From the sequence record MW630116.1: a DNA stretch of 64,000 nucleotides. The stretch is one strand, 5' to 3'. The stretch is from Escherichia phage vB_EcoM-ZQ3. The notes under the pieces are model-generated. The model did not search any database and had not been told where the DNA came from. It worked only from the letters and a program-made list of their open reading frames with translations. Within the stretch, counting starts at the first letter, position 1, and each line of letters begins with the position of its first letter. The translations under genes and the position numbers were made by a program. Of the stretch, positions 36,712-52,221 are shown in pieces.

Positions 36712-36712
36712 A

Positions 36713-37362: not shown

Positions 37363-37366
37363 GTAA

Positions 37367-38036: not shown

Positions 38037-38042
38037 AACAAA

Positions 38043-38114
38043 TGGTGCATCGTATAAAGGTTATTACGGGGAGCTGTTAACTCCTTTATCTTGGTTCGAG
38101 TCCAAGTGCGCCAG
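38043..38114 (+). tRNA. tRNA-Asn (anticodon GTT)
   Basis: acceptor TGGTGCA/TGCGCCA, anticodon stem GGGAG/CTCCT loop CTGTTAA, T arm CTTGG-TTCGAGT-CCAAG; D stem only 3 bp; no encoded CCA. Confidence 0.65.
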
Positions 38115-38188
38115 TAATTTAAACGAAGTAAATTAAGTGCTCTATCCAAATAATAAATACTCCTATATTTTATAGGAGATAATTGGTA

Positions 38189-38854
38189 ATGAGCATTTGT
38201 AAACATTGTAATATGGAATTTGATATTTCTAATAAACCTAAAGGATGGATGGCTAACCACACTAGATGGTGTAAATCCAACCCTAAATTGGAATTGTATA
38301 AAGAAAGTTCTAAATCAGCCATTGCAGCAATGAATAAAGCACGTATAGCTTCAGGTAATTTAAACCAGTATGTTGTATCTAAAAAGACTGGTGTCCCTGT
38401 AGTAATTTCGGAAGAGACTAGACAAAAATTGTCAGCCGCTTCATTAGGTAGAGAACACTCTGAGGAATCTAGAATAAAAATATCTAATGCTCGGAAAAAA
38501 TGGTTGAATGAAAACCCTGATAAACATCCTTGGAAGAAAAATACAAAATTTAAATCTGTGCCTTGTGAATTTTTGAAATCTAAATTAATAGAAAACGGAA
38601 TTTCATTTATTGAAGAATACCAACCGGTTAAAAACCGAGCGTATTGCACGGATATTGCTTTAATAGATAAAAAGATTATTATTGAAGTTAATGGAAACCA
38701 ACATTACTCCAATCCTAAGAAAAAGATTTTGGCCCCTTATTATAAAGAACGCCATGATATTATAAAATCATTAGGATGGGAAATATATGAACTTCATTAT
38801 GCTGAAGTTTATAAAGAAGATATTGTAAATAATTTAATTGCCTCTATAGTGTAA
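38189..38854 (+). CDS. putative homing endonuclease (Zn-finger / NUMOD3-like / C-terminal Vsr-DUF559-like nuclease domain)
   Basis: 222 aa from MSICKHC; CxxC...H..C N-terminus, NUMOD3-like ETRQKLSAASLGREHSEESRIKISNARKKW, C-terminal IIEVNGNQHY...D...GWEIYEL; located in tRNA cluster like T4 segB. Confidence 0.6.
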   Translation: MSICKHCNMEFDISNKPKGWMANHTRWCKSNPKLELYKESSKSAIAAMNKARIASGNLNQYVVSKKTGVPVVISEETRQKLSAASLGREHSEESRIKISNARKKWLNENPDKHPWKKNTKFKSVPCEFLKSKLIENGISFIEEYQPVKNRAYCTDIALIDKKIIIEVNGNQHYSNPKKKILAPYYKERHDIIKSLGWEIYELHYAEVYKEDIVNNLIASIV

Positions 38855-38915
38855 TGGATAGCATATAATCGTTCTAAGGTTAATGGTGAGAGTTCAAATC
38901 TTTCTAGAGGCACCA
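38840..38915 (+). tRNA. tRNA-Arg (anticodon TCT)
   Basis: acceptor GCCTCTA/TAGAGGC, anticodon stem TAATC/GGTTA loop GTTCTAA, T arm GAGAG-TTCAAAT-CTTTC, encoded CCA; overlaps last 15 nt of upstream ORF. Confidence 0.8.
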
Positions 38916-38933
38916 ACTTTAAGTGAGGAAAAT

Positions 38934-39278
38934 ATGAAAGGCAATATTTATTTGGTAGTTCATGATTTAACGTTTTATTTTAACGAACAGGATACAGTTA
39001 TTTCCGACCGGTTGATTAATTCGTTATATCAACACGCTGATTACGTTTATTTTCAAAATGAATTCGGACATTGGAAGTTTCTTAAAAACCGTTCCGGGTT
39101 AACTAGTTTTGAATACTTTGACCGTAAAGACCTTTTAAACGAAATTCCATTACAACATCGGTTCCAGAAACGCGAATCACTATACTATTGTCGCCATATA
39201 CCAAATGCTGAATGTGTTTATGAAGCGATTAATCTATGGCGTCGGCGTCGAGAGCAAATTGATGATATGCCAAAATAA
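38934..39278 (+). CDS. hypothetical protein
   Basis: 114 aa from MKGNIYLVVHDL; RBS GAGGAA; longer ORF start lies inside tRNA-Arg. Confidence 0.5.
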   Translation: MKGNIYLVVHDLTFYFNEQDTVISDRLINSLYQHADYVYFQNEFGHWKFLKNRSGLTSFEYFDRKDLLNEIPLQHRFQKRESLYYCRHIPNAECVYEAINLWRRRREQIDDMPK

Positions 39279-39279
39279 G

Positions 39280-39588
39280 AAGCCGGGTCGCTACCGGCAA
39301 GACGTCGGACTGATGTTCCCTGAGTAAGGATTGGTCTTAATAAATCTTTACGATTTGTTAATACCCCCTTACATCACAGCAGAAACGGCGCACAGAATTA
39401 TCGATTCGAGGAAATATCTTTGCCGTAAGCCGAGTAGCGTTTTTGACGGAACGTTCGGATATGGTCGAGATATGGCCTTTTAAAAATATTGAGTAGCGTC
39501 AACTGCTTAATAACCGGGTTCGAATCCCGGCGTTTCGTACAAACACTTACCTAGTAGGTGGAAACCCGACAAGGTTGCCGCAAGGCAT
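39280..39588 (+). ncRNA. ORF-free structured region, candidate small stable RNA(s) or decayed tRNA genes
   Basis: about 310 nt without ORF; hairpin GCCGG-GTCGCTA-CCGGC at 39282-39298; tRNA-like T arm CCGGG-TTCGAAT-CCCGG (39514-39530) with acceptor-like pairing CGGAACG/CGTTTCG but no canonical D/anticodon arms. Confidence 0.3.
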
Positions 39589-39617
39589 AGCCCCTTCCGA
39601 AAGGTTGGGGCTTTTTT
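39589..39617 (+). terminator. intrinsic terminator
   Basis: AGCCCCTTCC-GAAA-GGTTGGGGCT followed by TTTTTT. Confidence 0.55.
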
Positions 39618-39618
39618 G

Positions 39619-39626
39619 TATAAATA
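39619..39626 (+). promoter_or_regulatory. late promoter TATAAATA upstream of IP-like gene
   Basis: exact TATAAATA 36 nt upstream of ATG 39662. Confidence 0.45.
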
Positions 39627-39661
39627 TAGTAAACAATAAACCTACTTTCTAAGGACCATCA

Positions 39662-40282
39662 ATGTATACTTTTAATGAATTTTTAGCCGAAACGGAAGTA
39701 ATCACCGAAGCCGGCGTACGTATGACAAAAGAGAAATGGCAAGCTGCTTACGATGCTATTTCTGGTACAAAAACTAGTACAGAGTTTTTCAAAAACGTTC
39801 AAGCCATGTACGGTATCGACACTTCTAGCCAAAAAGAATATTACAGAGCTTCTAAAGCATTCAAAGATATTGTTAGTGGTGGTGTTTCTGCTAAATCGGG
39901 TTCGCCTAAAGTAAAACCTGCTCCTACCATTCCTAAACCTGCGACCCCTAAAGCAAAACCTGAGCCTAAGCCTGAAGTAAAAGCAACTCCTAAAGCTCCT
40001 GCTCTTAAGTTTGATACTTCTAGCCTGGAAAAAAAATATAAACAACTATCTTCGCTTGTTCGTGATATTGAATCCGATACATCTTCACTCGTTCGTGAAT
40101 TCAATATTCTTCGTAATGGCCAACATATCAACAACCTTGATACTCCAGACCTTTATCGTCTTTATTTGACTATCGAAGGTTTGAAGTATACTCAACCACT
40201 TCACGATGCGATTAAAGAAAAACTTCGTCAGGCAGGTCGTTTGGCTGCTGACGCTGCTCAGTATGCAAAAACTCGTAAGTAA
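39662..40282 (+). CDS. internal protein-like protein with capsid-targeting N-terminus and Pro/Lys-rich linker
   Basis: 206 aa; N-terminus MYTFNEFLAE-TE (variant of MKTYQEFIAE); low-complexity KPAPTIPKPATPKAKPEPKPEVK segment. Confidence 0.55.
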   Translation: MYTFNEFLAETEVITEAGVRMTKEKWQAAYDAISGTKTSTEFFKNVQAMYGIDTSSQKEYYRASKAFKDIVSGGVSAKSGSPKVKPAPTIPKPATPKAKPEPKPEVKATPKAPALKFDTSSLEKKYKQLSSLVRDIESDTSSLVREFNILRNGQHINNLDTPDLYRLYLTIEGLKYTQPLHDAIKEKLRQAGRLAADAAQYAKTRK

Positions 40283-40285
40283 AGA

Positions 40286-40305
40286 ATGGGGACTTCGGTC
40301 CCCAT
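40286..40305 (+). terminator. hairpin ATGGGGAC-TTCG-GTCCCCAT
   Basis: perfect 8-bp stem with UUCG loop immediately after stop of 39662 ORF; weak U-run. Confidence 0.4.
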
Positions 40306-40334
40306 TAGGGGGTCTATAACTTACTAAAAAAGTT

Positions 40335-40370
40335 GTTTACTTCTTCCCTAGTTGTGTTACTATAGTCCTA
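40335..40370 (+). promoter_or_regulatory. early promoter cassette
   Basis: GTTTAC-N17-TACTAT then conserved leader TTAAAACATGAGGAG. Confidence 0.5.
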
Positions 40371-40391
40371 TTAAAACATGAGGAGAATATT

Positions 40392-40895
40392 ATGAGTCTT
40401 TACACTGAACTGAATAAAAAATCTGAAGAATCCGCTGAAACTATTTTTAAAAACGTGCAAAAGCGTATTTTAGAAAAGATGTATAACACTGCAGCTAAAG
40501 GTGAAAAATCTTGCCGGTTTCCGATGAGGTGTTCTTCCGATTTATGCGCAAATACTATTGAATGGCTGGAAAGTGAAGGTCTTACGGTAGAGAAAAACCC
40601 GGCGTCTTCTATTGACAGTGAATCATATATTAGTATTTCTTGGGATAAATCAAGGGTAGAAGAGAAAGATGGTGATTGGGTTGTAGATGTTAAAACTTCT
40701 GATGGCGGACGTTCTGTTGAAGTTTCAGCTGTAGTTAAAGGTACCCACGAACAAAGGACTTGGGGTTGGGGTGGTGAAGAAAAAGAAATTGTTCTTAGTG
40801 TGATTGCCAGGTCAACTAGTAATAAAATTGCACAAAGCATCATTGACGCTGCAATTGCTGAAGCAGAAAAAATTTGCAAAATTAAAAATAAATGA
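40392..40895 (+). CDS. hypothetical protein
   Basis: 167 aa; GAGGAG RBS. Confidence 0.55.
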   Translation: MSLYTELNKKSEESAETIFKNVQKRILEKMYNTAAKGEKSCRFPMRCSSDLCANTIEWLESEGLTVEKNPASSIDSESYISISWDKSRVEEKDGDWVVDVKTSDGGRSVEVSAVVKGTHEQRTWGWGGEEKEIVLSVIARSTSNKIAQSIIDAAIAEAEKICKIKNK

Positions 40896-40934
40896 TGTAC
40901 AAACGCCAAGGACGGTGTTACTATAGACCTATCA
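40895..40934 (+). promoter_or_regulatory. early promoter cassette (variant -35 TGTACA)
   Basis: TGTACA...TACTAT then conserved leader TAGACCTATCAACTACAGAGGAG. Confidence 0.4.
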
Positions 40935-40953
40935 ACTACAGAGGAGAAACAAA

Positions 40954-41181
40954 ATGGCTACAGTTAGTATTGATGTCGTTGATTATGAATACACCGAAGA
41001 AGTTATTCGCAGCCGTCACCCTGAAGTTCGTATCGATTCAGTCCAAGATTCCAAGTTTTGGACAACCGAGCTTAATCTGAGTGGTCCTTATGAAGCTGTT
41101 AAGAAGTTCATGGTTGAAGAATACTGCGAAGGCATGCACCCCGAAGACGCCGAGTTTTATGTCAATTTGATTAAAAAATAA
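40954..41181 (+). CDS. hypothetical protein
   Basis: 75 aa acidic protein; GAGGAG RBS. Confidence 0.5.
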   Translation: MATVSIDVVDYEYTEEVIRSRHPEVRIDSVQDSKFWTTELNLSGPYEAVKKFMVEEYCEGMHPEDAEFYVNLIKK

Positions 41182-41253
41182 TTTACAAACTCTTGAGAGC
41201 AGAGTATAATGCTCTCATTGGATAATAAACACCACCAATTGAAAGGTAATAAT

Positions 41254-41847
41254 ATGAACACACTGAAGAAACTTGTTGAATTCATCCGCACTAAACTGGG
41301 TACTGCTATGGCTAAAAATCTGACTGTCGAAGAACAGTATAACGCAGCTGCAGATAAGTTGATTACCCAAATCAAAGAACTAAAAACGGCTTCTGTTAAA
41401 TCTATTAATGAAGAAAAACGTATTCGCGAACTTGTTATTGAAAAGAATAAGCAAGCCGCTTCTAAGGAACGTGAAATTCGTAAGCTCCTGGCTGAAGGAC
41501 AAGATGTTACCATGCATGCTAAGCTTGGTCTTCTGTATCGTCGAACTGCCGAACAACTTAATACAAAAGCTGACGGGTACGCTGCTATGCGAATTGAAAT
41601 TGCTCGTAAGGTGGTTGAACTTGACGATGCTCGTCAGAATCTGGCAATCAAACTCGAATACATTCGTGAAACTCGAGCAGCTAATGCCCTTGGTATCTCT
41701 ACGGCTGATGATGTAATTGAAATCGCTGCACTAACTAAGGTTGATATCGAAGACACTCTGACTCGTGTTGAAACGTTCAATGGCACACCAGCTGGTGTCG
41801 AAACCACTTCTGCTGATGTACAAGAATATATTAACTCTTTGAAATAA
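41254..41847 (+). CDS. hypothetical coiled-coil protein
   Basis: 197 aa from [10 protein letters not shown]; heptad-rich; RBS GAAAGG. Confidence 0.5.
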
Positions 41848-41856
41848 AATAATACG

Positions 41857-41880
41857 GAGGACTCCGGTCCTCCTTTTGGA
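41857..41880 (+). terminator. intrinsic terminator
   Basis: GGAGGAC-TCCG-GTCCTCC followed by TTTTGG. Confidence 0.55.
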
Positions 41881-41896
41881 TAATAAAGGAGTTAAC

Positions 41897-42319
41897 ATGC
41901 GAAACCAAAATAATGATATTGACTCAATGTTCGAAGAGTTCCGAAATAAGGTAAATCCACCTACGTCTTTAGTTGATTCATTACGATATGTTGCAACTGG
42001 ACGTAAATGGTACTGGTCGTCTTCTTATGAGACAACTGAATATGCAAATAACCGAAAATCTTTATTAGCCCCAGGTATTATGATTCATGATATCGGAGCT
42101 ATTGCTAAACTAGTTGCGGACCATGATATTAGATTCACTGATTTCGTTGCTCCTACGTGGTCTGTTTGTTGTTTAAACACTGAATGGGACTATATCAGTG
42201 AACGCTCTGAAGATTATTATGGTTTTAGAGATAAGCTCTTAAGGTCTAACATGTTTTATATCGATACTGAAGTTCTAGTCGATAATAAAATATTACTTTA
42301 CGTTAATCGTCGATTCTGA
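41897..42319 (+). CDS. hypothetical protein
   Basis: 140 aa from MRNQNNDIDSMFEEF; RBS AAAGGAG. Confidence 0.5.
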   Translation: MRNQNNDIDSMFEEFRNKVNPPTSLVDSLRYVATGRKWYWSSSYETTEYANNRKSLLAPGIMIHDIGAIAKLVADHDIRFTDFVAPTWSVCCLNTEWDYISERSEDYYGFRDKLLRSNMFYIDTEVLVDNKILLYVNRRF

Positions 42320-42323
42320 AACT

Positions 42324-42491
42324 ATGTATGAAGGCAAGCCTTTGCTTAAAAGAGTTGATGCTTTAAGTGCTATTGATGCGCTTTATGAAACCATGGTTGT
42401 TAGTCCTAATTTCACTAACAATTTAATCCTTGAGCAATTTATTATGGAATGTAGAGAATATGTCAAAGCCAACCCTATACATGCCAATTAA
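42324..42491 (+). CDS. small ORF ending in conserved FIMECR peptide
   Basis: 55 aa; carries the FIxECR junction motif shared with three other loci; overlaps next gene start. Confidence 0.3.
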   Translation: MYEGKPLLKRVDALSAIDALYETMVVSPNFTNNLILEQFIMECREYVKANPIHAN

Positions 42492-42855
42492 GCCCTGGGC
42501 ATACGAATACAAACGTAAATTAATCCCAAACGAAGTACTATTTGGCCCTATTTTAGCTTTAGCGTTTTTAATCTTTATGATTATAGGAGCTGTTTTAGAT
42601 TCCAATAAAGTTATATCGTCTGATGCAGCGTTTTCATTAATGTTCGTCGCACCACTTATTGTACCATTTTTATTAATGCCTATTAATTGGGCAGGATATT
42701 GGCACCAAGGCCGTCATCACAGAGCTCGAGTTCGTGAGTGGAAAGTTCAGTGCGCAAAAGCCCAAGCTCAGTATGATGAAGCTGTTAAAAAGTATGAATA
42801 CGAAGAAGCTATGGAATTCGTTAAGGAAATAAGATGCAAAAGCCTCAACTCTTAA
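42460..42855 (+). CDS. membrane protein
   Basis: 131 aa from MSKPTLYMP; two hydrophobic helices; basic C-terminus. Confidence 0.5.
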   Translation: MSKPTLYMPIKPWAYEYKRKLIPNEVLFGPILALAFLIFMIIGAVLDSNKVISSDAAFSLMFVAPLIVPFLLMPINWAGYWHQGRHHRARVREWKVQCAKAQAQYDEAVKKYEYEEAMEFVKEIRCKSLNS

Positions 42856-43085
42856 CCGTATGGCCGTCTCTTGGTGAGAACATTCTAATTTTTATTATGA
42901 GTATTGGCATGGGATTTGCCTTTGGATTAGTTGGATTTCTTATTGACGGCGTTGTGTTAGGATTTATAGGGAACACTGGTGGATTCACAGACCAATGGCA
43001 GGACCTAAGATACACCCAAGCCTTTGCATCTATCGCATCATTTTGTACTGTAAGTCTATTTTTACTACGATTTTATAAACCATAA
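42834..43085 (+). CDS. small membrane protein
   Basis: 83 aa, Gly-rich TM segments. Confidence 0.5.
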   Translation: MQKPQLLTVWPSLGENILIFIMSIGMGFAFGLVGFLIDGVVLGFIGNTGGFTDQWQDLRYTQAFASIASFCTVSLFLLRFYKP

Positions 43086-43190
43086 CAAGAAAAATAAAAA
43101 GGTTTACGCTTCTCAAATGATTAGTTATAATGAACTCCTAGCTAGACGTGAAAATGAAACAATAGAAAACTTTATTAAGGAATGTAGAAA

Positions 43191-43496
43191 ATGAGTAAGA
43201 TTATTGAAATTAAAGTACCAGAGTTTAATGATGCTAAATCCGCTTCAGATGCAATTTATAAACTTCTGAATCAAGCTGAACGTATCGAAGAAGAAGCAAC
43301 AAAGATCGCAGACCAATATGCCGTATCATTTTCTGTAGGTGATTATGGTAGTGGTCGTACTTATTATCCTAAGGGTGAAATTGTATCCCAGTGGATGAAA
43401 GATGAAATTGAAAATAATGGTGGTGATGTTAAACGTGAAGGTAATGGTTACGTTATTACTGAAGGTGCTTGGGTTTCGTCTTCTTCGATGTGCTAA
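43191..43496 (+). CDS. small protein, paralog 1 of C-terminal GxWVSSSxxC family
   Basis: 101 aa; ends GAWVSSSSMC; RBS AAGGAA. Confidence 0.55.
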   Translation: MSKIIEIKVPEFNDAKSASDAIYKLLNQAERIEEEATKIADQYAVSFSVGDYGSGRTYYPKGEIVSQWMKDEIENNGGDVKREGNGYVITEGAWVSSSSMC

Positions 43497-43505
43497 GGAA
43501 TCATT

Positions 43506-43778
43506 ATGTCTAAAGAACAAACCGAACTGGCTGAAGCCGTAGCAAAAATCTATGCAGCTATTGAGGCTGCCAAAGAAATTGCTGATAAACAAAACACAAC
43601 ATTCGACTTGTATCCGGCTTATGGTATGGGTGGAACCTATCATTCACCCGGACAACTTAAAGCCGATCTTGAACGTTGTACAAAAAACGGCTATGCTGAA
43701 TGGGCTGACGTTTACCAATACGACTACAACCTGAGCCTCGAAACTGGTGGTTGGATTGCATCTTCTCATACTTGCTAA
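43506..43778 (+). CDS. small protein, paralog 2 of C-terminal GxWVSSSxxC family
   Basis: 90 aa; ends GGWIASSHTC; preceded by TGCTAAGGAA..ATG. Confidence 0.55.
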   Translation: MSKEQTELAEAVAKIYAAIEAAKEIADKQNTTFDLYPAYGMGGTYHSPGQLKADLERCTKNGYAEWADVYQYDYNLSLETGGWIASSHTC

Positions 43779-43787
43779 GGAAACCAT

Positions 43788-43985
43788 ATGTCTCGTGAAT
43801 TAGATTGTGCTGTACGTACCGCAGTAGCTGCTCTGGAAAACCTGTTCCAAATTGCAACAGAAGAACGCGAAGAAGTTACATTGTGGATTGAAGATAACGC
43901 AGGTCTGAATCTCCAGGACGCGATCTCATTATCCAATAATAGCATTACTGTTCAAGGCTGGGTATCATCTAGTTATTCTTGCTAA
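43788..43985 (+). CDS. small protein, paralog 3 of C-terminal GxWVSSSxxC family
   Basis: 65 aa; ends QGWVSSSYSC; preceded by TGCTAAGGAA..ATG. Confidence 0.55.
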   Translation: MSRELDCAVRTAVAALENLFQIATEEREEVTLWIEDNAGLNLQDAISLSNNSITVQGWVSSSYSC

Positions 43986-43989
43986 AACA

Positions 43990-44029
43990 GTTTACAACAA
44001 GATAGGGCTATGTTATAGTAGTCCTATCA
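43990..44029 (+). promoter_or_regulatory. early promoter cassette with palindrome
   Basis: GTTTAC then GATAGGGCTA/TAGTCCTATC inverted repeat. Confidence 0.5.
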
Positions 44030-44047
44030 AATTAAATGGAGTCCACA

Positions 44048-44287
44048 ATGATTTATTACGAAAGTATCGGAACCAAAGTGGTTGGTAAAACCATTACTCG
44101 TGAAAAGTTTGCAAAGATATTCGATATGCGTTATAAAAAATCTGAACACAAAGGCATCCGATTCGAAGATGCACATTGTACAATTTGCCCTTATAATGAA
44201 GATATAAATGGTACAATCGTTCCATTGGTAGAGGCTTCACATGACGACCTCTGGGATGAATATAATATCGCATGTCGCGAAATTTAA
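44048..44287 (+). CDS. hypothetical protein
   Basis: 79 aa from MIYYESIG; GGAG RBS 7 nt upstream. Confidence 0.5.
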   Translation: MIYYESIGTKVVGKTITREKFAKIFDMRYKKSEHKGIRFEDAHCTICPYNEDINGTIVPLVEASHDDLWDEYNIACREI

Positions 44288-44312
44288 GTAATCTAAATTC
44301 GAGGAAATTATT

Positions 44313-45269
44313 ATGATGTTAGTTATTGGTTCTCGTGCACTTCACTATCACGGTCTTATTGATTCTAACGCTATCAAAAATAGTGACTGGGACTTTATTG
44401 CAGACCAAGGTTCTTGGAATGCATTCAAAAATCAAATGATGGGTGTATATGTTCATCAAGATAACCCTGATGTCCAAGTTTTCAAATGCTTCCATAACGG
44501 ACGCGAAACTCATTTTGAAGCATATATTGTTCCGGCAATCACTAATGTCCGTGAACTAGTCGGTGAACTCACTCCTGAAGATTTCACGTCTTCTTATGAC
44601 CTTTTAAAATACGCCAAGAAAAATTTGACTAAAGACCGTTTGAACGGGTTTTACTGGGCAACTCCTGAGATGTGCCTTGCAATTAAGATGTCTCATCGTT
44701 TCAAGAAAAATAATCCATTCTTTTTAAAGACTATGAACCATATTCAGTATCTTCGTGGTAAAGGTGTTAAACTGAATGATGAACTTACTGAAATTATGCT
44801 GAAACGTCAGAAAGAAACCTTGAACTATGCTCACCCAGTTCTTGACACTTCTAAAAGTGCGTTCTTTAAAGATGACATCTATACATATGACCATGATACT
44901 ATTCATGAAGCCATTGCACTAACAGACCGTCCAGCATATACATTTTATATGAAAGACGGTTCTGAAGTCATGACCTCACGCGAGAAGTTCGAATCGTTAC
45001 CAGAAATGGTCAAATTGGCCGGTGTATATGAAGAATCATGTGTACTAGCATTAGAACGTTCTCAGATTCCTAATGGCTTTGAAATCCATCCTCGTGATAG
45101 TTTTATGATGGCATTAGAAAAGGTCTGTACTTCAATCACATCAGGCTGGTTCCGTGAGTATGCCTGGGAGAACTACAGCAAAGTAGTAAGTATGTACCAA
45201 AGCTTAGGACATGATGATTACGTCAAACGTTTCAAACAAAATTTCCATATGGTAAAACCTTTCAAATAA
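44313..45269 (+). CDS. hypothetical protein with possible Pol-beta-type nucleotidyltransferase N-terminal motif
   Basis: 318 aa; N-terminus VIGSRALHYHGLIDSNAIKNSDWDFIAD fits hGS...D-x-D pattern loosely. Confidence 0.5.
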   Translation: MMLVIGSRALHYHGLIDSNAIKNSDWDFIADQGSWNAFKNQMMGVYVHQDNPDVQVFKCFHNGRETHFEAYIVPAITNVRELVGELTPEDFTSSYDLLKYAKKNLTKDRLNGFYWATPEMCLAIKMSHRFKKNNPFFLKTMNHIQYLRGKGVKLNDELTEIMLKRQKETLNYAHPVLDTSKSAFFKDDIYTYDHDTIHEAIALTDRPAYTFYMKDGSEVMTSREKFESLPEMVKLAGVYEESCVLALERSQIPNGFEIHPRDSFMMALEKVCTSITSGWFREYAWENYSKVVSMYQSLGHDDYVKRFKQNFHMVKPFK

Positions 45270-45282
45270 TTTCACCAAACTG

Positions 45283-45322
45283 TTTACAAGGTCTGTAGTT
45301 GTTGATACTATAGACCTATCAA
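45283..45322 (+). promoter_or_regulatory. early promoter cassette
   Basis: GTTTAC...TACTAT with AGGTCT/AGACCT inverted repeat. Confidence 0.5.
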
Positions 45323-45348
45323 AACAAATGAGTGAATGGAGATACAAA

Positions 45349-45549
45349 ATGACTACTTTGAATAAACGTTTCGGTAAAGCTAAACCTGGCTGTGCAGCAG
45401 AACGTCGTTACATTTTCGCTCAGTTAGAAGATGTAGAGTATCAGATTAATCAAGTTCACATTACTGGCATCGAGCCTATGTGTGGCCTTGAAGCTCTTCG
45501 TGAAGTTCGTGACGGGTATCGTCGTGATATCGAAGAAATGTCAAAATAA
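45349..45549 (+). CDS. hypothetical protein
   Basis: 66 aa from MTTLNKRFGK; GGAG RBS. Confidence 0.5.
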   Translation: MTTLNKRFGKAKPGCAAERRYIFAQLEDVEYQINQVHITGIEPMCGLEALREVRDGYRRDIEEMSK

Positions 45550-45589
45550 GTGTACAAACTGATAGGGCTATGTTATAGTAGTCCTATTA
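45550..45589 (+). promoter_or_regulatory. early promoter cassette (variant -35 GTGTAC)
   Basis: near-identical to cassette at 43990. Confidence 0.45.
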
Positions 45590-45607
45590 AAACATGAGGA
45601 GAATAAT

Positions 45608-45913
45608 ATGAAATTAACAGAAACCAACCGAATTGGCCTTTTAACGATACTTACATCACCTTTTTATGCTGTGCTTTCTGTTGCAGTATTACAAAAGGCC
45701 TATGGCATGGACGGTGTTCCTGGTTGTGTATTTTTATCACCGTTTTTGTTATTAGTTGGTGCTCTGTTATTATACGCGACAACAGGTTTCGACCATAATG
45801 TTTGGGTCAAGTTTAAACGTAGATTAACTGAAGAAGAACACGCTGAAGCTCGTAAAAAAGCTATTGAATCTACCAATCTAGAAAATTTCATTAAAGAATG
45901 TCGAGGAAAATAA
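45608..45913 (+). CDS. membrane protein ending in conserved FIKECR peptide
   Basis: 101 aa; two TM helices; C-terminus ENFIKECRGK. Confidence 0.55.
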   Translation: MKLTETNRIGLLTILTSPFYAVLSVAVLQKAYGMDGVPGCVFLSPFLLLVGALLLYATTGFDHNVWVKFKRRLTEEEHAEARKKAIESTNLENFIKECRGK

Positions 45914-45914
45914 T

Positions 45915-46601
45915 ATGAATAGTTCTAAAGTGTTTAATAGTCAAGCTCGTGCAGTAGGTGGTTTTGCTCATGCGATTAAAAATGACCAGATTAAAAACGA
46001 GCCTATGTTCTTCAACTGTAGTTTAGAATTTGCTTATAATAACGGTGGTCCTATTACTCGCAGCTTCATCATGAACTTGCCTGATGATTGGAACACCGAC
46101 CAGGTTGTATTTGATTCACGGGTCCACATGCTGATGCCTGGTTGGTACCCTGCTATCCCGGGTTATCACCATGATGATGTACCACGCCCGGATATTCCGG
46201 TTGGTCAACACTTTATTACTGCAGGACAACCTGATTATGACAATCCTCGCTATTTGTCTGAACATATTCTTGGTCTTGTTAACGCTGATGTGTGTCCTAC
46301 TCATTTTGCAACAGGAACTGCAGAGTTCAGTCAGATTCCTGATGGCGAACTTATCTATCGCCAGTGGCACAAAGAAGTCCTCGAAAAAATTGAAAAAGGT
46401 GAACTAGAGAAATGGGAAGCTCCAGATCGTACTCTTCTTCAGTTTGATTGGCAAACATGGCACACTGGTTCTCGTGCAATTAGTAATGGATGGCGTTGGT
46501 TCGGACGTGTATCTCGTAATACAGACCGAGTTAAAAAGATTACCAATGAAATTCGTGTCAATGCTCAAGTTTATCTGGAATTCCCTATGGAAGGCTGGTA
46601 A
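45915..46601 (+). CDS. hypothetical protein
   Basis: 228 aa; His/Trp-rich; no motif recognised. Confidence 0.55.
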   Translation: MNSSKVFNSQARAVGGFAHAIKNDQIKNEPMFFNCSLEFAYNNGGPITRSFIMNLPDDWNTDQVVFDSRVHMLMPGWYPAIPGYHHDDVPRPDIPVGQHFITAGQPDYDNPRYLSEHILGLVNADVCPTHFATGTAEFSQIPDGELIYRQWHKEVLEKIEKGELEKWEAPDRTLLQFDWQTWHTGSRAISNGWRWFGRVSRNTDRVKKITNEIRVNAQVYLEFPMEGW

Positions 46602-46694
46602 TGATTAACAAAACATATTGGTCTTAATATAGACGATGGCAACGAAGGTATTTCATACTATTCAGTAGATTGGACAGGATGTCCATCCTACTTA

Positions 46695-47006
46695 GTGAAA
46701 CATATTTGCCAAGAATTTAAAATCGACCAGCCAGCAGGTATTATCGTGAACAGATACATTAATGGATATCAACCTATCGATGAAGTAATACGAACAACTC
46801 AAGCTGAGCTTGAAAAGTTTTTCAATAAGTGCCAATGGATAACAGGATGGATTATATTTGTACCGTCTATATGGTTTTTCAGTACTAAGGTGAGTTCTTT
46901 CGGTTTTGTTGATATTATTGCTATCTTATTAGCATCTAGTATCATAAGTGTTGTTGGTGGCATCATTGGCGGCGGTACCGCCGCCATCATTATTAAATCT
47001 TATTAA
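46695..47006 (+). CDS. hypothetical membrane protein (GTG start, uncertain)
   Basis: 103 aa; Gly-rich hydrophobic C-terminus; no convincing RBS. Confidence 0.35.
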   Translation: MKHICQEFKIDQPAGIIVNRYINGYQPIDEVIRTTQAELEKFFNKCQWITGWIIFVPSIWFFSTKVSSFGFVDIIAILLASSIISVVGGIIGGGTAAIIIKSY

Positions 47007-47091
47007 AAGTAGTTTACAAGAACATAAAGCCAAGATAAAGGCCAAGAATAATGAAGTTGAACGTTTTATTACCGAATGCAGGAATTTGAGA

Positions 47092-47327
47092 TGAGTATAG
47101 CAATTTACATTAAATCAGAATCATGTGATAGTTATCTGTACACATACGATAAAGACGTGTCAGAAGAAAAAATCAAAGACGATCTTAATATGGACCTTGA
47201 TATGTTCTGTCCTATTGCAGATTACAAACTTGCGGTCTCTAATAGTGAAAGTCCATCTAAAGAAACGCGCATTGAAGAATTTATGTCCGAATTAATGGCT
47301 AAATCATGGGACCGAGATGATGAGTAA
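47092..47327 (+). CDS. hypothetical acidic protein
   Basis: 78 aa from MSIAIYIK; RBS AGGAATTTGAG. Confidence 0.45.
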
Positions 47328-47774
47328 GAAAAATAAAGTGAAAGAACTATCAGCCGGTATTATTTTCCTTACCGAAGATAAAGAATTATTCATGGGGCGT
47401 GTAACTGGTTCTCGTCCTAAAGGTTCTTTAGCTCATCGGTGGGATATTCCTAAAGGACGTGTCGAGCCCGCCGAATCTCCTATTGAAGCCGCTATTCGCG
47501 AATGCGAAGAAGAAACTGGGTTTACACAATATGACCTGCCTTCCTGAAAGACCTAGGTGAACATCATTACTCAGACAATAAGAATATTCATCTGTTCCTA
47601 TATACCATCCCTGTAGAGCACGAGCAATTCAGAAACAGTGTTTGTAATTCCTATCATACATTCCCAGACGGACGACAGATTCCTGAATTTGATGCATTCG
47701 CTTTAATTAAACCTTCTCAATGGGAATATGTAATGGGCAAATCATTATATAAGGTGCTCACTACCCTCCTATAA
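47320..47774 (+). pseudogene. nudE: Nudix hydrolase NudE homologue interrupted by a -1 frameshift near 47535-47545
   Basis: N-terminal 74 aa with Nudix box GRVEPAESPIEAAIRECEEETG ends at TGA 47545; C-terminal 77 aa continue in the -1 frame to 47774; sum 151 aa equals intact T4 NudE. Confidence 0.6.
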
Positions 47775-47808
47775 GTAATAAATACCTCCTATAAACGTGG
47801 GAGGTATT

Positions 47809-48297
47809 ATGAATATATTTGAAATGCTTCGTAATGACGAAGGTCTTAGACTGACTTTATACAAAGACACCGAAGGCTTTTGGACGATTGGCATAGGCCA
47901 TTTAGTAACAAAGAACCCGTCTTTAGCCGTAGCTAAAGCTGAACTTGACAGAATGATCGGTCGTAAATGCAACGGTACAATTACCCTTGATGAGGCTGAA
48001 AAGCTATTTAATGAAGACGTTGATAAAGCCGTTCGCGGAATCTTGGGTAATGCTAAACTTAAACCGGTATATGATTCTTTAGATGCAGTTCGTCGATGTG
48101 CATTGGTCAATATGGTCTTCCAAATGGGTGTAGCAGGCGTCGCAGGTTTTACTAATTCTCTTCGTATGCTTCAACAGAAACGTTGGGATGAAGCGGCAGT
48201 AAATCTAGCCCAATCTAAATGGTATCGTCAGACACCTAATCGCGCGAAACGCGTAATCTCAACATTTAAAACAGGAACTTGGAAAGCGTATATATGA
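47809..48297 (+). CDS. e: lysozyme (endolysin)
   Basis: 162 aa from [31 protein letters not shown]; catalytic Glu11/Asp20/Thr26 context conserved as in T4 lysozyme. Confidence 0.95.
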
Positions 48298-48575
48298 AAA
48301 CATATAGTGAATTTTTATCAGAATCTATTCTTAACGAAGCTACTGACACATTTGCAACTAAGCTAGGTGCAGCTTTGGTTGAAGCTGAAAGTCTATTAGC
48401 ACGTATTTCTGAACTTGCTAGTAAGATAGATACTCGCAAATTTGAGCGCACCAGTGATATCGTTAAGCTTGAAGCCTTGTTGCGTATGTGTGATAAACCG
48501 GAAGAAATCGCTAAGAACGGCTCGCTGATGAAACAACGTCTTGAAAAATATATTTCAGGCGCTTCAGAAAAATAG
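48294..48575 (+). CDS. internal protein-like protein with capsid-targeting N-terminus
   Basis: 93 aa from [11 protein letters not shown]; ATGA overlap with e stop. Confidence 0.6.
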
Positions 48576-48576
48576 T

Positions 48577-48615
48577 GTTTACTTCCTCCAAGGGTTTTGA
48601 TACTATACATTCATC
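48577..48615 (+). promoter_or_regulatory. early promoter cassette
   Basis: GTTTAC-N18-TACTAT; spacer CCTCCAAG pairs with downstream CTTGGAGG containing the denV SD. Confidence 0.5.
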
Positions 48616-48633
48616 AACTACTTGGAGGAAATT

Positions 48634-49047
48634 ATGACTCGTATCAATTTAACACTTGTTTCTGAACTGACCGACCAACATCTTATGGCTGAGTATCGTG
48701 AATTACCACGCGTATTTGGTGCAGTCCGTAAACATGTTCAAAACGGTAAACGTGTAAAGGATTTTAAAATCTCCCCGACATTTATCTTAGGCACAGGTCA
48801 TGTAACATTCTTTTACGACAAACTCGAATTTTTACGTTTACGTCAAATCGAGCTAATCGCTGAATGCTTGAAACGTGGTTTCAAAATCAAGGACACGACT
48901 GTCCAAGATATTTCCGACATCCCTGCCGAATTTCGTAATAATTATGTCCCGTCCGAAGCGTCCATTGCGATAAGTCAAGCACGCTTAGACGAAAAAATTG
49001 CTCAACGTCCTACTTGGTACAAATACTATGGTAAATCAATTTACTAA
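48634..49047 (+). CDS. denV: endonuclease V (pyrimidine dimer DNA glycosylase)
   Basis: 137 aa from [34 protein letters not shown]; matches recalled T4 DenV. Confidence 0.92.
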
Positions 49048-49078
49048 GGAAAAAGGTTGCGATGGTAAAGCTTAAACA

Positions 49079-49118
49079 GTTTACGCTTAAGTATTAATAT
49101 GGTATAATTACTCTATCA
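49079..49118 (+). promoter_or_regulatory. early promoter cassette (-10 TATAAT)
   Basis: GTTTAC-N18-TATAAT. Confidence 0.5.
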
Positions 49119-49138
49119 AAACAAACAAGGAAACAAAA

Positions 49139-49441
49139 ATGAAAACATATCAAGAATTTATTACTGAAGCGCGAGTGAGTGCAGGTAAATTAGAAGCCGC
49201 TATAAATAAAAAGGCCCATTCATTTCACGATTTGTCCGATAAAGACCGTAAGAAACTTGTAAGCCTTTATATTGACAAAGAGCGTATTCTCGCTCTTCCT
49301 GGCGCTAATGAAGGTAAACAGGCCAAGCCTTTGAATGCTGTTGAAAAGAAAATTGATAACTTTGCTTCTAAATTCGGTATGTCTATGGATGACCTTCAGC
49401 AAGCGGCTATCGAAGCAGCTAAAGTAATTAAAGGTAAATAA
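49139..49441 (+). CDS. internal protein (IPII/IPIII-like)
   Basis: 100 aa from MKTYQEFITE-ARVSAGKLEAA; canonical capsid-targeting sequence. Confidence 0.7.
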   Translation: MKTYQEFITEARVSAGKLEAAINKKAHSFHDLSDKDRKKLVSLYIDKERILALPGANEGKQAKPLNAVEKKIDNFASKFGMSMDDLQQAAIEAAKVIKGK

Positions 49442-49443
49442 CA

Positions 49444-49485
49444 GTTTACTTTCTCCTAGAATTGTGATAGTATAATCATAATTAC
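49444..49485 (+). promoter_or_regulatory. early promoter cassette followed by decayed 3-codon ORF
   Basis: GTTTAC-N21-TATAAT then RBS GAGAGG and ATG ACT CGA TGA (49499-49510). Confidence 0.4.
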
Positions 49486-49713
49486 TTGGAGAGGTAAAAT
49501 GACTCGATGAAAAAATTTTAATGAAGCCACACTGGTATAAGTATTAAGGCAAAAATATTTACATTCAAATAACATGGGAACAAGCTGGACCTCATGATTC
49601 TATGAGGGATTCCCGCCAACCTGTAATAAGGTCGAGCCCAAGTGCGGTAATGGGTAAATACAGAAATGGACAATTCATGTGCCATGGAATGGCCCAAACT
49701 TAGAGAGAACAAA

Positions 49714-50253
49714 ATGAAAACATTTTTAACTGGACCTTATCTATCCCTGATGAATGCTTTTACACACCATTCTGATGCTAGAGTAGAAGAAATTTGTAAG
49801 AACGGTTATGTCCCACCATTTGAAGACATACTCAAGCAGTACTGTACACTTCGTTTAGACGGTGGCAGACAATCAGGTAAATCCACTGCAGTAACTAATT
49901 TTGCTGCTAATTGGCTGCACGACGATGGAACAGTTATTGTTCTTTCTAATACTTCAGCTTATGCTAAAATTTCTGCTGGCAACATTAAAAAAGAATTTTC
50001 TCGTTATTCTAGCGATGATATTCGATTCCGTTTATTTACTGATTCTGTCCGTAGTTTTATTGGCAATGAAGGTTCTAAATTCCGTGGATTAACGCTTTCT
50101 CGTATTCTATACATAATTGACGAGCCTATTAAAGCTCCTGATATGGATAAGATTTACAATGTCCATATTAAATCAGTACAGCACTGCTGCAAAAGCAAAT
50201 ATTGCATAGGCGGTACTGCTCGTCCTCAATTTTTTGTGATTGGAATGCAATGA
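49714..50253 (+). CDS. P-loop NTPase-like protein
   Basis: 179 aa from MKTFLTGPY; Walker A GGRQSGKST. Confidence 0.55.
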   Translation: MKTFLTGPYLSLMNAFTHHSDARVEEICKNGYVPPFEDILKQYCTLRLDGGRQSGKSTAVTNFAANWLHDDGTVIVLSNTSAYAKISAGNIKKEFSRYSSDDIRFRLFTDSVRSFIGNEGSKFRGLTLSRILYIIDEPIKAPDMDKIYNVHIKSVQHCCKSKYCIGGTARPQFFVIGMQ

Positions 50254-50558
50254 TGACCACTATTGAAGTTTTTGAGTATTGTTATAACAGTCCAGTATGC
50301 AATAAAAGGGCTCTTGTAGAAAATTACGAGATCTACCATTTTAAACCTAAACGATATCGTTTGACTAAAGGTCCGTTCGCAGGTCAGCAGGTTCTTTGTA
50401 CTGCTCCTAATGCACGGTTGATGACTAGTATTCCGCATTTCAAAATGGAATTTATTGATGGGCCATTTAAGGGATTAATCACTCAAAGTTTAATGGCGTT
50501 TAATTCCGACCCATTTTTGATTAAAGAAAAATCTTGGATAAATTTATTTTCTAATTGA
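50250..50558 (+). CDS. hypothetical protein
   Basis: 102 aa; ATG overlaps upstream stop. Confidence 0.5.
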   Translation: MMTTIEVFEYCYNSPVCNKRALVENYEIYHFKPKRYRLTKGPFAGQQVLCTAPNARLMTSIPHFKMEFIDGPFKGLITQSLMAFNSDPFLIKEKSWINLFSN

Positions 50559-50564
50559 GGTTAT

Positions 50565-50927
50565 ATGAAAGCATATCAAATTCTTGAAGGCACACACAAA
50601 GGCACTATTTATTTTGAAGACGGTACTCAAGCCCGGATTATTGTCTCTAAGACTTTTAAAGAAGACGCTATTGTAGACCCGGAAATTTTCTACGGTTTGA
50701 ATGCCCGTGAAATTGAAATTGAACATCAACCTAAAGTTAAAATTGAAGGTGGTCAACACCTGAACGTTAATGTTCTGCGTCGTGAAACTCTGGAAGATGC
50801 AGTTAAGCATCCAGAAAAATATCCGCAGTTGACCATCCGTGTATCCGGTTATGCAGTTCGCTTTAACTCTCTGACTCCGGAACAGCAGCGCGACGTTATC
50901 GCTCGTACCTTTACTGAGAGTCTATAA
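50565..50927 (+). CDS. autonomous glycyl radical cofactor (GrcA/YfiD-like)
   Basis: 120 aa; C-terminal glycyl-radical motif [27 protein letters not shown]. Confidence 0.75.
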
Positions 50928-51151
50928 TGGCTAAATTGATTATAGAAGGGTCTGAAGATGTTTTAAAATGTTTTGCCGCCTGGTTTAGTTGCTCAGGCGA
51001 GCAATCATTCATTGAAGCATTTAGAATGGGTGATATTACTGGAAACTATCCGGCAACTGATATCACTGTACGTGGATATGGTATTAATGAGCCTATCCAA
51101 TTGGTCGAATATGACCTTGCCACTGATGAGGAAATTCCTTATGTCGATTGA
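50927..51151 (+). CDS. hypothetical protein
   Basis: 74 aa; ATGA-type overlap with upstream gene. Confidence 0.45.
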   Translation: MAKLIIEGSEDVLKCFAAWFSCSGEQSFIEAFRMGDITGNYPATDITVRGYGINEPIQLVEYDLATDEEIPYVD

Positions 51152-51407
51152 AGATATTAAAGGCTACAAGCCACATACCGACGATAAAATCGGTAAAGTG
51201 AACGCTATTAAAGATGCAGAAGTCCGTCTTGGATTGTTGTTTGATGCTCTGATTGAAGAAGCATATATCTTGAAAGAAAATGAAACAGAGCAACAAACCA
51301 AAGAAGATATGGATGCAGTACAGGCTCTTAAGTATGCTAAGCAACATCTAAAAGAAGCCAGCATGTGGGCCTGTCGTGCAGTATTTCGACCTGAGGAAAA
51401 ATACTAA
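51141..51407 (+). CDS. hypothetical protein
   Basis: 88 aa from [10 protein letters not shown]; longer alternative-frame ORF start rejected. Confidence 0.45.
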
Positions 51408-51706
51408 TGGCTCAAATCCTATCAGGCTTTGGAACTCATTATGAATCATCTAGACGCATAACTGAAAGCAATCCTTTTGGCCTTGTTCCGAAGCACAAAA
51501 AAATTCAAAGCCTTGATGACTTTGAGAACCGCCTATGGGCCCTCTTTAATGAGTACAAGGCATATCTGAAAGAAGACGCTGACGATTGTCTTGAAGAAGA
51601 TGAGATTGCGTATTACGAACAACGCCTTGAACAGCTCAAGAACTTCCACCAGGTTCGTGACGAAGTATCTAAAGCAGTTAAAAAGTTAATTCCTTTCAAA
51701 GAGTAG
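51407..51706 (+). CDS. hypothetical protein
   Basis: 99 aa, acidic helical. Confidence 0.5.
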
Positions 51707-51745
51707 TTTACTTCTCCTCTAGATGTGTTACTATAGACCTGTCAA
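51706..51745 (+). promoter_or_regulatory. early promoter cassette with anti-SD arm
   Basis: GTTTAC-N17-TACTAT; CTCCTCTAG (51714-51722) is perfectly complementary to CTAGAGGAG (51746-51754) containing the SD. Confidence 0.5.
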
Positions 51746-51762
51746 CTAGAGGAGAAATCAAA

Positions 51763-52221
51763 ATGACTATCAATTCAGACGTTTTTATCCGCCGCAATAA
51801 ACTCCGTCGAATCTTTGAAACGGAGTTCCGCAAAATAAATGCCAGTATAAAAGATGCTGCAAAGTCTCTTGGACTACCAGGCTTTCATATCAAGTATTCT
51901 CAACATCTCTTAGATCGTGCCATCCAGAGAGAAATAGATGAGAACTACGTTTTTGAATTATTTCGTAAAGTAAAAAATCATGTTAAAGAAGTTGCAGAAT
52001 TTTTATCAATGCCGGCACGTCCGGATGTTGATGAAGATTTTGTCGAAGGCGTCGAATATCGCCCAGGCCGTTTAGAAATAACTGATGGAAATCTTTGGTT
52101 AGGACTTACAGTTTGTCGCGAAAATCCAGCATTCAAAATGAAGACTCTTCAATGCAGAATGGCTATTATTAACAGTAAACGACTACCAGGAAAAGCTTCT
52201 AAAGCAGTGATTAAAATCTAG
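51763..52221 (+). CDS. regB: RegB-like site-specific endoribonuclease
   Basis: 152 aa; N-terminus MTINSDVFIRRNKLRR and C-terminus RLPGKASKAVIK as recalled for T4 RegB; position between denV and tk. Confidence 0.6.
   Translation: MTINSDVFIRRNKLRRIFETEFRKINASIKDAAKSLGLPGFHIKYSQHLLDRAIQREIDENYVFELFRKVKNHVKEVAEFLSMPARPDVDEDFVEGVEYRPGRLEITDGNLWLGLTVCRENPAFKMKTLQCRMAIINSKRLPGKASKAVIKI

Follow-up and report, generated by a model that had tools for sequence, protein, structure and literature searches.

The window, that is, the whole stretch of 64,000 nucleotides from Escherichia phage vB_EcoM-ZQ3 (MW630116.1) that was analysed, belongs to the Mosigvirus group (RB69/HX01/JS09) of T-even coliphages, and approximately 1.7 kb around the locus considered here are 99.5% identical to phage ECCR664 and 98.8% identical to HX01. 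The local order, 5' to 3', is nudix hydrolase, lysozyme e, a small internal protein, denV, an ipII-like gene, the interval under study, and vs.8. In T4, the order is ipII-denV-element-vs.8, the element being the structured RNA element described below, and the content of the slot between ipII and vs.8 varies among relatives. The features of the locus, all on the plus strand, are:

approximately 48570-48620, plus strand: early-promoter cassette of the intact denV gene, with the 3' end ...GGAGGAAATTATGACTCGT (cassette alignment)
48634..49047, plus strand: intact denV (endonuclease V), T4-like allele (list of open reading frames; annotated as endonuclease V in HX01, SF and mogra)
49139..49441, plus strand: gene of an ipII-like internal virion protein (capsid-targeting N-terminus MKTYQEFITE...; relatives)
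49444..49476, plus strand: T4-type early promoter cassette (GTTTAC 49444-49449; TG-n-TAGTAT 49465-49473; overlapping TATAAT 49471-49476)
49488-49494, plus strand: ribosome-binding site (RBS) GGAGAGG (sequence)
49499-49510, plus strand: mini-ORF ATG ACT CGA TGA (sequence)
49507..49568, plus strand: 3'-terminal fragment of denV, approximately 62 nt, last ~21 codons (in-frame denV end in the relatives L010, L074 and L076)
49576..49614, plus strand: 5' domain of the RNA element, type A (GGGAA 49576-49580 and UUCCC 49610-49614 enclosing the hairpin 49590-49607)
49615..49655, plus strand: universal core of the RNA element (helices P1 and P2 and the invariant 3' strand; covariance model R1, covariation)
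49615-49618 with U49651 and 49653-49655, plus strand: P1, GCCA paired with U and GGU, bulged G49652 (covariation)
49619-49622 with 49629-49632, plus strand: P2, ACCU/AGGU, loop GUAAUA (near-invariant)
49633-49650, plus strand: near-invariant 18-nt 3' strand CGAGCCCAAGUGCGGUAA (alignment)
49656..49713, plus strand: tail specific to T4-like phages and vs.8 leader (AUGGAC; hairpin GCCA-UGGAA-UGGC 49681-49693; purine-rich Shine-Dalgarno (SD) sequence AGAGAG 49702-49707)
49714..50253, plus strand: vs.8 homologue, 179 aa, terminase-ATPase-like (Walker-A GRQSGKST; ATG at 49714)

A repeat search of the window places the direct-repeat families D5 and D7 at the starts of ip genes. The vs.8 product has been described as an ATPase-like activator of EcAvs2 (bioRxiv 10.64898/2026.04.30.721860). 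The interval between ipII and vs.8 probably comprises two separate things, the wreck of a denV gene (49444-49568) and a structured RNA element (49576-49713).

The initial annotation had described a promoter cassette driving a three-codon ORF, followed by a tRNA-like remnant, and had read the whole as a scar left by the deletion of a gene and/or a tRNA. The cassette at 49444, the RBS, the ATG at 49499 and the stop after three codons all lie where it had placed them, and the stretch behind the mini-ORF is non-coding as described, 49511-49713 containing no conserved ORF. The cassette aligns with seven other cassettes of the window (alignment A4), with GTTTAC invariant and followed by TG-n-TA, RBS and ATG, and this dispersed cassette family makes up the repeat families D1-D4, with many GTTTAC...TATA copies. 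The GTTTAC -35 element, a -10 element approximately 16-19 nt downstream, the RBS, the ATG and the repeated occurrence are all present, as in the early-promoter cassettes (PeSLs) of T4-type hyperplastic regions (Arbiol et al., 2010, PMC2839356). The cassette is missing from a simple sigma-70 scan because it scores 8/12 and the cut-off is 9/12, and the G+C-rich stem-loop that is a component of PeSLs is not evident in 49436-49500. As with PeSLs, the cassette is one of several strong, early, sigma-70-like promoters that are dispersed over a hyperplastic region and directly precede small genes there, and the genes around it are gained and lost via recombination at short repeats. In contrast, the PeSL concept covers promoter and shuffling and not the 43-nt core of the RNA element, which is common to non-T4 phages and has covarying helices of its own.

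Alignment to relatives shows which gene was lost. In L074, the same cassette follows ipII and stands, with ATGACTCGTATT..., before a full-length denV, the RNA element and vs.8, and the intact occupant of the slot is likewise denV in L010 and L076. The window is colinear with L074 over 49137-49506, skips approximately 350 nt of denV and resumes at 49507/49511 to continue to 49738. The 8 nt ATGACTCG (49499-49506) are those with which denV starts, also in the intact copy of the window itself, whose cassette ends in ATGACTCGT (alignment A4). The region 49507-49568 lies in a local alignment of 223 nt with approximately 96% identity to L010, where denV encodes 138 aa, and in L010, L074 and L076 the 3' end of denV is directly followed by the conserved non-coding block and then vs.8. 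The syntenic position therefore retains both ends of denV and lacks its interior, and relatives have the orthologue intact, as is typical of a pseudogene. The fragment has acquired an internal TAA at 49545-49547, where relatives have TAC, and CAA (49566-49568) stands in place of the ancestral stop. The junction falls into a GACTCG repeat (49501-49506), and GACTCG occurs near both ends of denV. The fusion of the denV ends is out of frame, hence the three-codon ORF. Promoter and mini-ORF are what is left of a denV copy that was redundant, given the intact denV 450 nt upstream, and the loss of denV from the slot next to this intact gene implies that the lineage once had two denV genes. The gene-loss half of the earlier reading is thus borne out, with the second denV copy as the lost gene.

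The course of events follows directly from these comparisons. The ancestor carried ipII, early promoter, denV, RNA element and vs.8, as in T4 and L074, and the lineage in addition carried a second intact denV upstream of ipII. The redundant copy then lost approximately 350 internal nt via recombination between two GACTCG repeats, which left the promoter, the RBS, ATGACTCG and the last ~62 nt of denV. Judged from sequence comparison, the cassette at 49444 is originally the promoter of this second denV copy, and it is now predicted to feed the RNA element and vs.8. Microhomology-mediated deletions are well documented in T4 (PMC9391042). Like the pseudogenes and compensatory deletions of evolved T4, the scar represents an internal deletion between repeats of 5-6 nt in a non-essential gene; in contrast to these deletions (PMC9391042), promoter and RBS remain, are predicted to be functional and would drive a three-codon minigene and the downstream RNA element. 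A second microhomology event is seen in mogra-type relatives, where a deletion between the GGTAAA repeats at 49493-49498 and 49653-49658 explains why the cassette is joined directly to the leader tail. The scar as such is ordinary: it is a clean, datable case of a T-even hyperplastic region shedding a redundant gene, with the promoter left in service.

The second half of the earlier reading, a tRNA-like remnant, fared differently. The block GGTCGAGCCCAAGTGCGG is present at 49630-49647, and by eye it resembles the tRNA-Asn gene at 38093-38112 (16 matches, one mismatch, one gap), but the similarity is at chance level. ARAGORN finds only three tRNAs in the window (37962-38915) and none at the locus. 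The Rfam tRNA model (RF00005) has no match in 49300-49900 at E<=10 and recovers only the three real tRNAs over 35000-52000; a profile HMM of the element family hits tRNA-Asn (38096-38110) with an E-value of only 3.5, and covariance model R1 has no match to tRNA-Asn at E<=10. In the real tRNA-Asn, CCAAG forms the 3' strand of the T-stem and pairs with CUUGG. In the element, the corresponding stretch, which drives the similarity, is the most variable segment of the family (CCAA, CAAA, CCGU, AAGA and others) and lacks a 5' partner, and the arrangement GG-UCGAG-CC would give a T-loop of 5 nt and not 7. Moreover, relatives show the same sequence with no additional tRNA, and none of the relatives examined has a tRNA at the slot. 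The gap between tRNAs of the window (38115-38839) contains a homing-endonuclease-like ORF and no related RNA module. The element family is often located near tRNA genes in other phages, which would fit a tRNA remnant; given the results of ARAGORN, Rfam, profile HMM and R1 and the unpaired, variable CCAAG, we nonetheless reject a tRNA pseudogene and consider it highly improbable that a tRNA gene once present at the slot decayed to leave its T-arm and acceptor half at 49630-49647.

The block forms the core of an element on the sense strand that is widespread, conserved and structured and that current RNA databases lack. In a blastn search with the 217-nt non-coding stretch, the central ~43 nt recurred far outside Mosigvirus. 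The carriers among T4-like phages include T4, T2 and RB phages as well as T4-like genera of Klebsiella, Enterobacter, Yersinia, Citrobacter and Salmonella, and blastn further returned the unrelated rV5-like myoviruses and one 45-kb phage. Scans with degenerate patterns added 45 viral and 32 metagenome loci, including Klebsiella siphoviruses (~46 kb), a relative of a Shewanella phage and Vibrio phage RYC. Overall, the bare core occurs in 1,081 of 50,697 phage records, where it is almost never annotated, and it is 93-100% identical among otherwise unrelated phages. By comparison, blastn of the element on both strands against 5,426 complete E. coli genomes gave no match at E<=10, so that a mimic or antisense of a host RNA was rejected; 72,556 plasmids gave one match, in a record of 137 kb, a length that rV5-like phages also have; and in genome_contigs (185,579 species) a single partial match was obtained, where ~0.5 are expected by chance according to our own calculation. 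The strand of the element is that of its neighbours in every case.

The motif of approximately 43 nt, ACCUGURANAAGGUCNAGCNNNNGNGCGGUAA, is closed by a covarying 4-bp helix and contains ~30 invariant nt. The consensus of 46 distinct cores (alignment A1) reads N-[P1]-ACCU-GURANA-AGGU-CNAGC-NNNN-GN-GCGG-UAA-[P1']. With P1 and the hairpin as model, 95.9% of cells are paired compared to 78% in shuffled alignments. The covariation of P1 is 0.426 versus 0.098 in shuffled (0/500) and <=0.105 in slid alignments, counts in which related sequences are treated as independent and several classes are nearly clonal. Five pair types occur at each of two P1 positions, and an unbiased screen of all column pairs returned the same P1 pairs and nothing else. 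P2 is invariant except for one divergent tandem copy, in which an A-U pair is replaced by G-C. As P2 and the 3' strand are invariant, pairing of the former and single-strandedness of the latter are assumed, apart from this one A-U to G-C event. Additional pairs within the invariant 3' strand or a pseudoknot between loop and tail have no covariation support in the column-pair screen, and partners proposed by eye were rejected because their register differs between classes. The covariance model built from A1 (R1) has a single match in the window (69.3 bits); it further detects the copy in the Vibrio phage, with 50 bits, as well as weak tandem copies.

The core is preceded by a 5' domain that differs between classes. 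The hairpin CCTCAT-GATTCT-ATGAGG at 49590-49607, which the initial annotation had pointed out, is present, and its pairing is upheld by comparison. In the type-A domain, the type of the window and of T4 (alignment A3), 98.5% of cells are paired versus <=55% when the partners are slid against each other, and double changes convert GGGAA/UUCCC to GGGAG/CUCCC (L019) and CCUCAU/AUGAGG to CCUUAU/AUAAGG (L077); two U-A to U-G changes are also seen. The type-B domain of most other T4-like genera exchanges AAAGG/CCUUU for AAAGC/GCUUU and AAAGA/UCUUU, with pair 14-61 being GC in 14, CG in 11 and AU in 1 case, and encloses a two-part inner hairpin. Klebsiella siphoviruses have GAAUG/CAUUC or GAGUG/CACUC in the 5' domain and an outer helix GUUGUGAC/GUCACAAC with the compensated variant ..AA/UU... 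Hence, in tests that take no account of phylogeny, compensatory changes across lineages, as expected of a structured RNA, are found in P1, type A, type B, P2 and the outer helix of the Klebsiella phages. The minimum free energy of the whole region is no better than that of shuffles (z -0.18 for the window, -0.62 for Ivi). The tail (49656-49713) is conserved only in the T4-like classes A and B, and it is kept in mogra, which lacks the core.

These substitutions bear on whether conservation might act at the DNA level, with the element as a recombination or mobility module of the PeSL type or as a nuclease target for cassette exchange. Phage SF has an extra ip gene between two directly oriented copies, copies in phi25-307 and mogra have been recombined or deleted at short repeats, and Karam-like phages contain tandem copies. 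The 93-100% identity of the core among unrelated phages could reflect horizontal spread, and PeSLs provide a precedent (PMC2839356). However, the flanking helices change by compensatory substitutions that preserve pairing, which points to selection on a folded single strand. Moreover, the orientation is always sense relative to transcription, the Klebsiella copies are embedded in a dedicated non-coding transcription unit, and no nuclease or recombinase gene travels with the element. We thus regard selection on the DNA as very unlikely.

A folded single strand could also be conserved for what it encodes. One frame is open through the core in 78 of 78 instances, several variable positions are third codon positions (TCN, CCN, AGY, AAR), and the annotation of T4 makes the element the N-terminus of Vs.8. 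Yet 36 of the 78 instances lack an in-frame start, and existing starts have no SD and in many cases consist of GTG or TTG. The peptides on either side share neither sequence nor length, no class varies at the four-fold sites of CCT, GCG and GTA, and frameshifted copies (A112b type, SF copy 2) retain the nucleotide motif. Based on the missing starts and SD sequences, the invariant four-fold sites and the frameshifted copies, a small protein-coding gene was rejected, and a conserved small peptide (...QPVIRSSPSAVMG...) can hardly be the reason for the conservation.

The element does not resemble a known RNA either. Rfam 15 at permissive E-values found nothing on the element in the window and in 10 loci from five classes. 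The ribozyme models (hammerhead, twister, twister-sister, pistol, hatchet, HDV-like), run on type A, type B, rV5-like, Ivi and Klebsiella-phage copies, had no match at E<=10 or E<=1, and HDV-like and twister-like folds were rejected since the required partner strands were not found by eye and Rfam was negative. There is no match to an Rfam riboswitch, and what lies downstream differs among classes (vs.8, ip genes, a promoter, tRNAs, RNA modules). A tmRNA mimic had been considered because of a presumed colinearity with tmRNA (UAAUAA...CCCUCUC...AGGUC.A.CCCAA), but in five of six classes the local alignment scores against E. coli ssrA do not exceed those of dinucleotide shuffles, and this candidate was rejected. 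ARAGORN finds no tmRNA, and the tmRNA matches of Rfam fall on a neighbouring module X and not on the element. What we take to be likenesses to the 16S 530 loop, the 16S 3' end, RNase P, 4.5S and 5S RNA extend over only 8-10 nt, which is short enough for chance. In a full-text collection of 8 million papers, the sequence strings of the element were not found, and searches on vs.8, denV and the ip genes turned up no description of it. A catalogue of 10,006 viral RNA candidates, of which ~8,500 are unnamed, has been published (PMC10690425), and the element may already be among these unnamed candidates.

The genomic contexts provide further indications of function. In non-T4 phages, the element lies within tRNA clusters or next to them, on the strand of the tRNAs. 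Klebsiella siphoviruses carry it as a module of a predicted promoter-driven non-coding operon antisense to tail genes, which also holds tRNAs and a tmRNA-like tag module (ANEEVYLAVA*). The modules of this operon are each closed by similar long stems, and these stems follow a UGCUCUU string, which we take to be boxA-like. In L054, a promoter-like site and a strong 13-bp terminator bracket the element. Based on the constant co-orientation and the upstream promoters, we infer that the element is transcribed from the sense strand, and the sequence data as a whole suggest that it is a functional non-coding RNA.

In T4-like phages, the context suggests a function in cis, as a leader (riboswitch, translational operator or protein-binding site) for vs.8 and internal-protein genes. 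In all T4-like genera, vs.8 or an ip gene follows the element at a distance of 60-110 nt; the element starts at or within ~8 nt of the upstream stop codon and is followed by a GGA-containing hairpin and an SD. The short helices around invariant unpaired nucleotides resemble the design of an aptamer, and vs.8 activates Avs2 when expressed (bioRxiv 10.64898/2026.04.30.721860), so that tight control is plausible. However, in rV5-like phages a separate promoter lies between the element and the next gene, and in Klebsiella siphoviruses and Vibrio phage RYC the element is followed by other RNA modules or tRNAs and by no ORF. Downstream genes are unrelated among classes, and no alternative between terminator and anti-terminator is seen. 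Furthermore, mogra retains vs.8 with the hairpin and SD and without the core, and the core is likewise lost with vs.8 kept at the first junction of phi25-307, which indicates that the core is dispensable, at least in cis for vs.8. Taken together, a cis-acting leader appears unlikely. The element shares with riboswitch aptamers and small ribozymes of Rfam the freely covarying short helices around invariant unpaired nucleotides and the occurrence in distant genomes; it differs from them in that Rfam 15 has no match, the classes share no downstream gene, an expression platform is missing, and a cleavage site was not identified.

A role in RNA processing, either as a self-cleaving ribozyme or as a signal for RNase P, E or III that separates stable-RNA or early-operon transcripts, would account for the small size, the invariant junction nucleotides between freely varying flanking helices, and the link to tRNA clusters and to multi-module non-coding operons closed by long-range stems. 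HDV-like 'theta' ribozymes are linked to phage tRNAs. Nevertheless, no Rfam ribozyme family matches even at E<=10, no candidate cleavage site was identified, and in T4-like phages the element is part of an mRNA leader, so that a cut within it would separate vs.8 from the promoter. We therefore consider processing or self-cleavage distinctly improbable.

Phages also produce small stable RNAs from their tRNA regions, such as species 1 and 2 of T4 (RNAs C and D), and carry tmRNA-like genes. Like these RNAs, the element is non-coding, structured, co-oriented with and often beside phage tRNA genes, and Klebsiella siphoviruses have it in one operon with tRNAs and the tmRNA-like tag module. In contrast to them, it has no sequence relation to tmRNA (ssrA scores at shuffle level), and in T4-like phages it lies in the denV-vs.8 spacer and not in a tRNA cluster.

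We tentatively favor the element as a stable, factor-binding non-coding RNA module. In such a module, a short covarying P1 with a bulged G would stack on the invariant hairpin ACCU-GURANA-AGGU, and the near-invariant strand CNAGC-NNNN-GN-GCGGUAA would separate P1 and hairpin on the 3' side, with the class-specific 5' hairpin domain preceding the core. At the present locus, the orphaned denV promoter would now transcribe the element. The invariant single-stranded nucleotides might be the binding site for a macromolecule that is conserved among gammaproteobacterial hosts, perhaps a factor related to translation or tRNAs, or a protein of host defence, and the RNA might be released by processing or be a small transcript of its own in other phages. 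In T4-like phages, the element might also serve as a portable leader before vs.8 and internal-protein genes. Somewhat more speculatively, it could represent an uncharacterised class of phage non-coding RNA that adopts a compact junction fold and has a conserved target in gammaproteobacteria, on which it acts in trans. Such RNAs may, for example, be decoys or inhibitors of a host RNA-binding defence or translation factor, or a new small ribozyme. A trans-acting class would explain why unrelated virulent phages keep ~30 invariant nt, as well as the placement in tRNA and stable-RNA islands.

Hence, the interesting part of the locus is the RNA element, which is present in more than 1,000 phages from unrelated families, including the model phage T4. 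It is missing from Rfam and from genome annotations, and in T4 it has been taken for the N-terminus of Vs.8; its recognition corrects gene models, in T4 for the start of vs.8 and in HX01 for spurious small ORFs. If the element is a functional RNA, it would add a new component to the islands of tRNAs and stable RNAs with which phages manipulate or protect translation.

In the window, the RNA element, the conserved structured motif of the vs.8 leader, is followed by two features:

Window 49673-49707: AUGGAC and the conserved hairpin GCCA-(A/U/C)GGAA-UGGC, in the vs.8 leader just 5' of the SD
Window 49714-50253 (+): vs.8 homologue with a Walker-A motif, downstream of the RNA element

An equivalent AUGGAC and hairpin region is present in all T4-like copies of the element. 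The vs.8 leader contains two GGA motifs, one of them in the hairpin loop, which in sequence resemble CsrA-type binding sites. T4 Vs.8 is annotated at 216 aa, and its annotated ATG falls within the RNA element hairpin (L008, the T4 locus, MT984581, 1527-1640; AF158101 64858-64900). In most relatives a stop codon interrupts the upstream extension frame ahead of the conserved MRTFLTGPY start, as the TAG at 49701-49703 does in the window, so the T4 start is probably over-extended by 37 codons. T4 vs.8 is reported to encode a terminase-ATPase-like protein that is toxic on co-expression with the defence sensor EcAvs2 (2026 preprint, bioRxiv 10.64898/2026.04.30.721860).

Upstream, at the remnant of the second denV copy, a strong orphaned RBS precedes ATG ACT CGA TGA (window 49499-49510), a 3-codon minigene on an early transcript, which phage SF keeps as ATG ACT CAA TGA. 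Such minigenes can cause peptidyl-tRNA drop-off, as the bar minigenes of lambda do; the minigene described here is probably incidental. In the RefSeq annotation of phage HX01, two tiny ORFs, gp066 (25 aa) and gp067 (28 aa), run across the remaining piece of denV and the RNA element, and both are almost certainly spurious:

L001 (HX01) 2419-2579 (minus strand), corresponding to window ~49518-49678: gp066/gp067 region

In phages mogra (L004 3200-3320) and phi25-307 (L003 3545-3640), the leader tail directly abuts the promoter cassette, as if 160 nt had been deleted between GGTAAA repeats (window 49493-49498 and 49653-49658); the RNA core is missing there, and so is the denV fragment. Some T4-like phages carry two copies (SF, L002; also L044, L048, L088 and L047), and Karam-like phages have a first copy followed by a divergent second one in tandem. 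The SF copies lie on either side of an extra 130-aa internal-protein-like gene:

L002 (SF) 2515-2557 and 3011-3052: RNA element copies

In Klebsiella siphoviruses of ~46 kb, a non-coding operon with a putative promoter (TTGACA-17-TAGATT) runs antisense to the tail genes and contains several framed RNA modules, then tRNAs:

L033 (oriented 5800-7050), L037, L068, L095 (2577-3240): non-coding operon
L033 5625-5750 (-); L095 ~2690-2760; L046; L068 ~7230-7330; L050: tmRNA-like module

The module frames hold UGCUCUU(U/A), then GUUGUGG, which resemble rrn boxA/boxC, and pair with downstream ...CACAAC...AAGAGCAUU in a manner similar to rRNA processing stalks. In the tmRNA-like module, an A-rich leader precedes GCA AAC GAA GAA GUG UAU CUG GCA GUA GCC UAA, encoding ANEEVYLAVA* (variants ANEEMYLAVA* and ANDDVVLMAA*). 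The Rfam permuted-tmRNA model scores it at 21.7 bits (E=0.05), under the gathering threshold, ARAGORN reports it at a relaxed threshold only, and no canonical tRNA-like domain lies next to it.

Within the window's own tRNA cluster, one ORF looks like a homing-endonuclease-type insertion:

Window 38190-38840: ~216-aa ORF (MSICKHCNMEFDISNKPKGW...), between tRNA-Asn and tRNA-Arg

The most divergent copy of the RNA element found also sits in a tRNA cluster, 460 nt past tRNA-Met:

L094 (Vibrio phage RYC) 1507-1549: RNA element copy

Here GCGG is changed to ACGG and GAGCC to GAGUC, and CCUGUAAUAAGGUCGAG and CGGUAA are retained. The RYC copy shows that the range of the motif extends to Vibrio phages.
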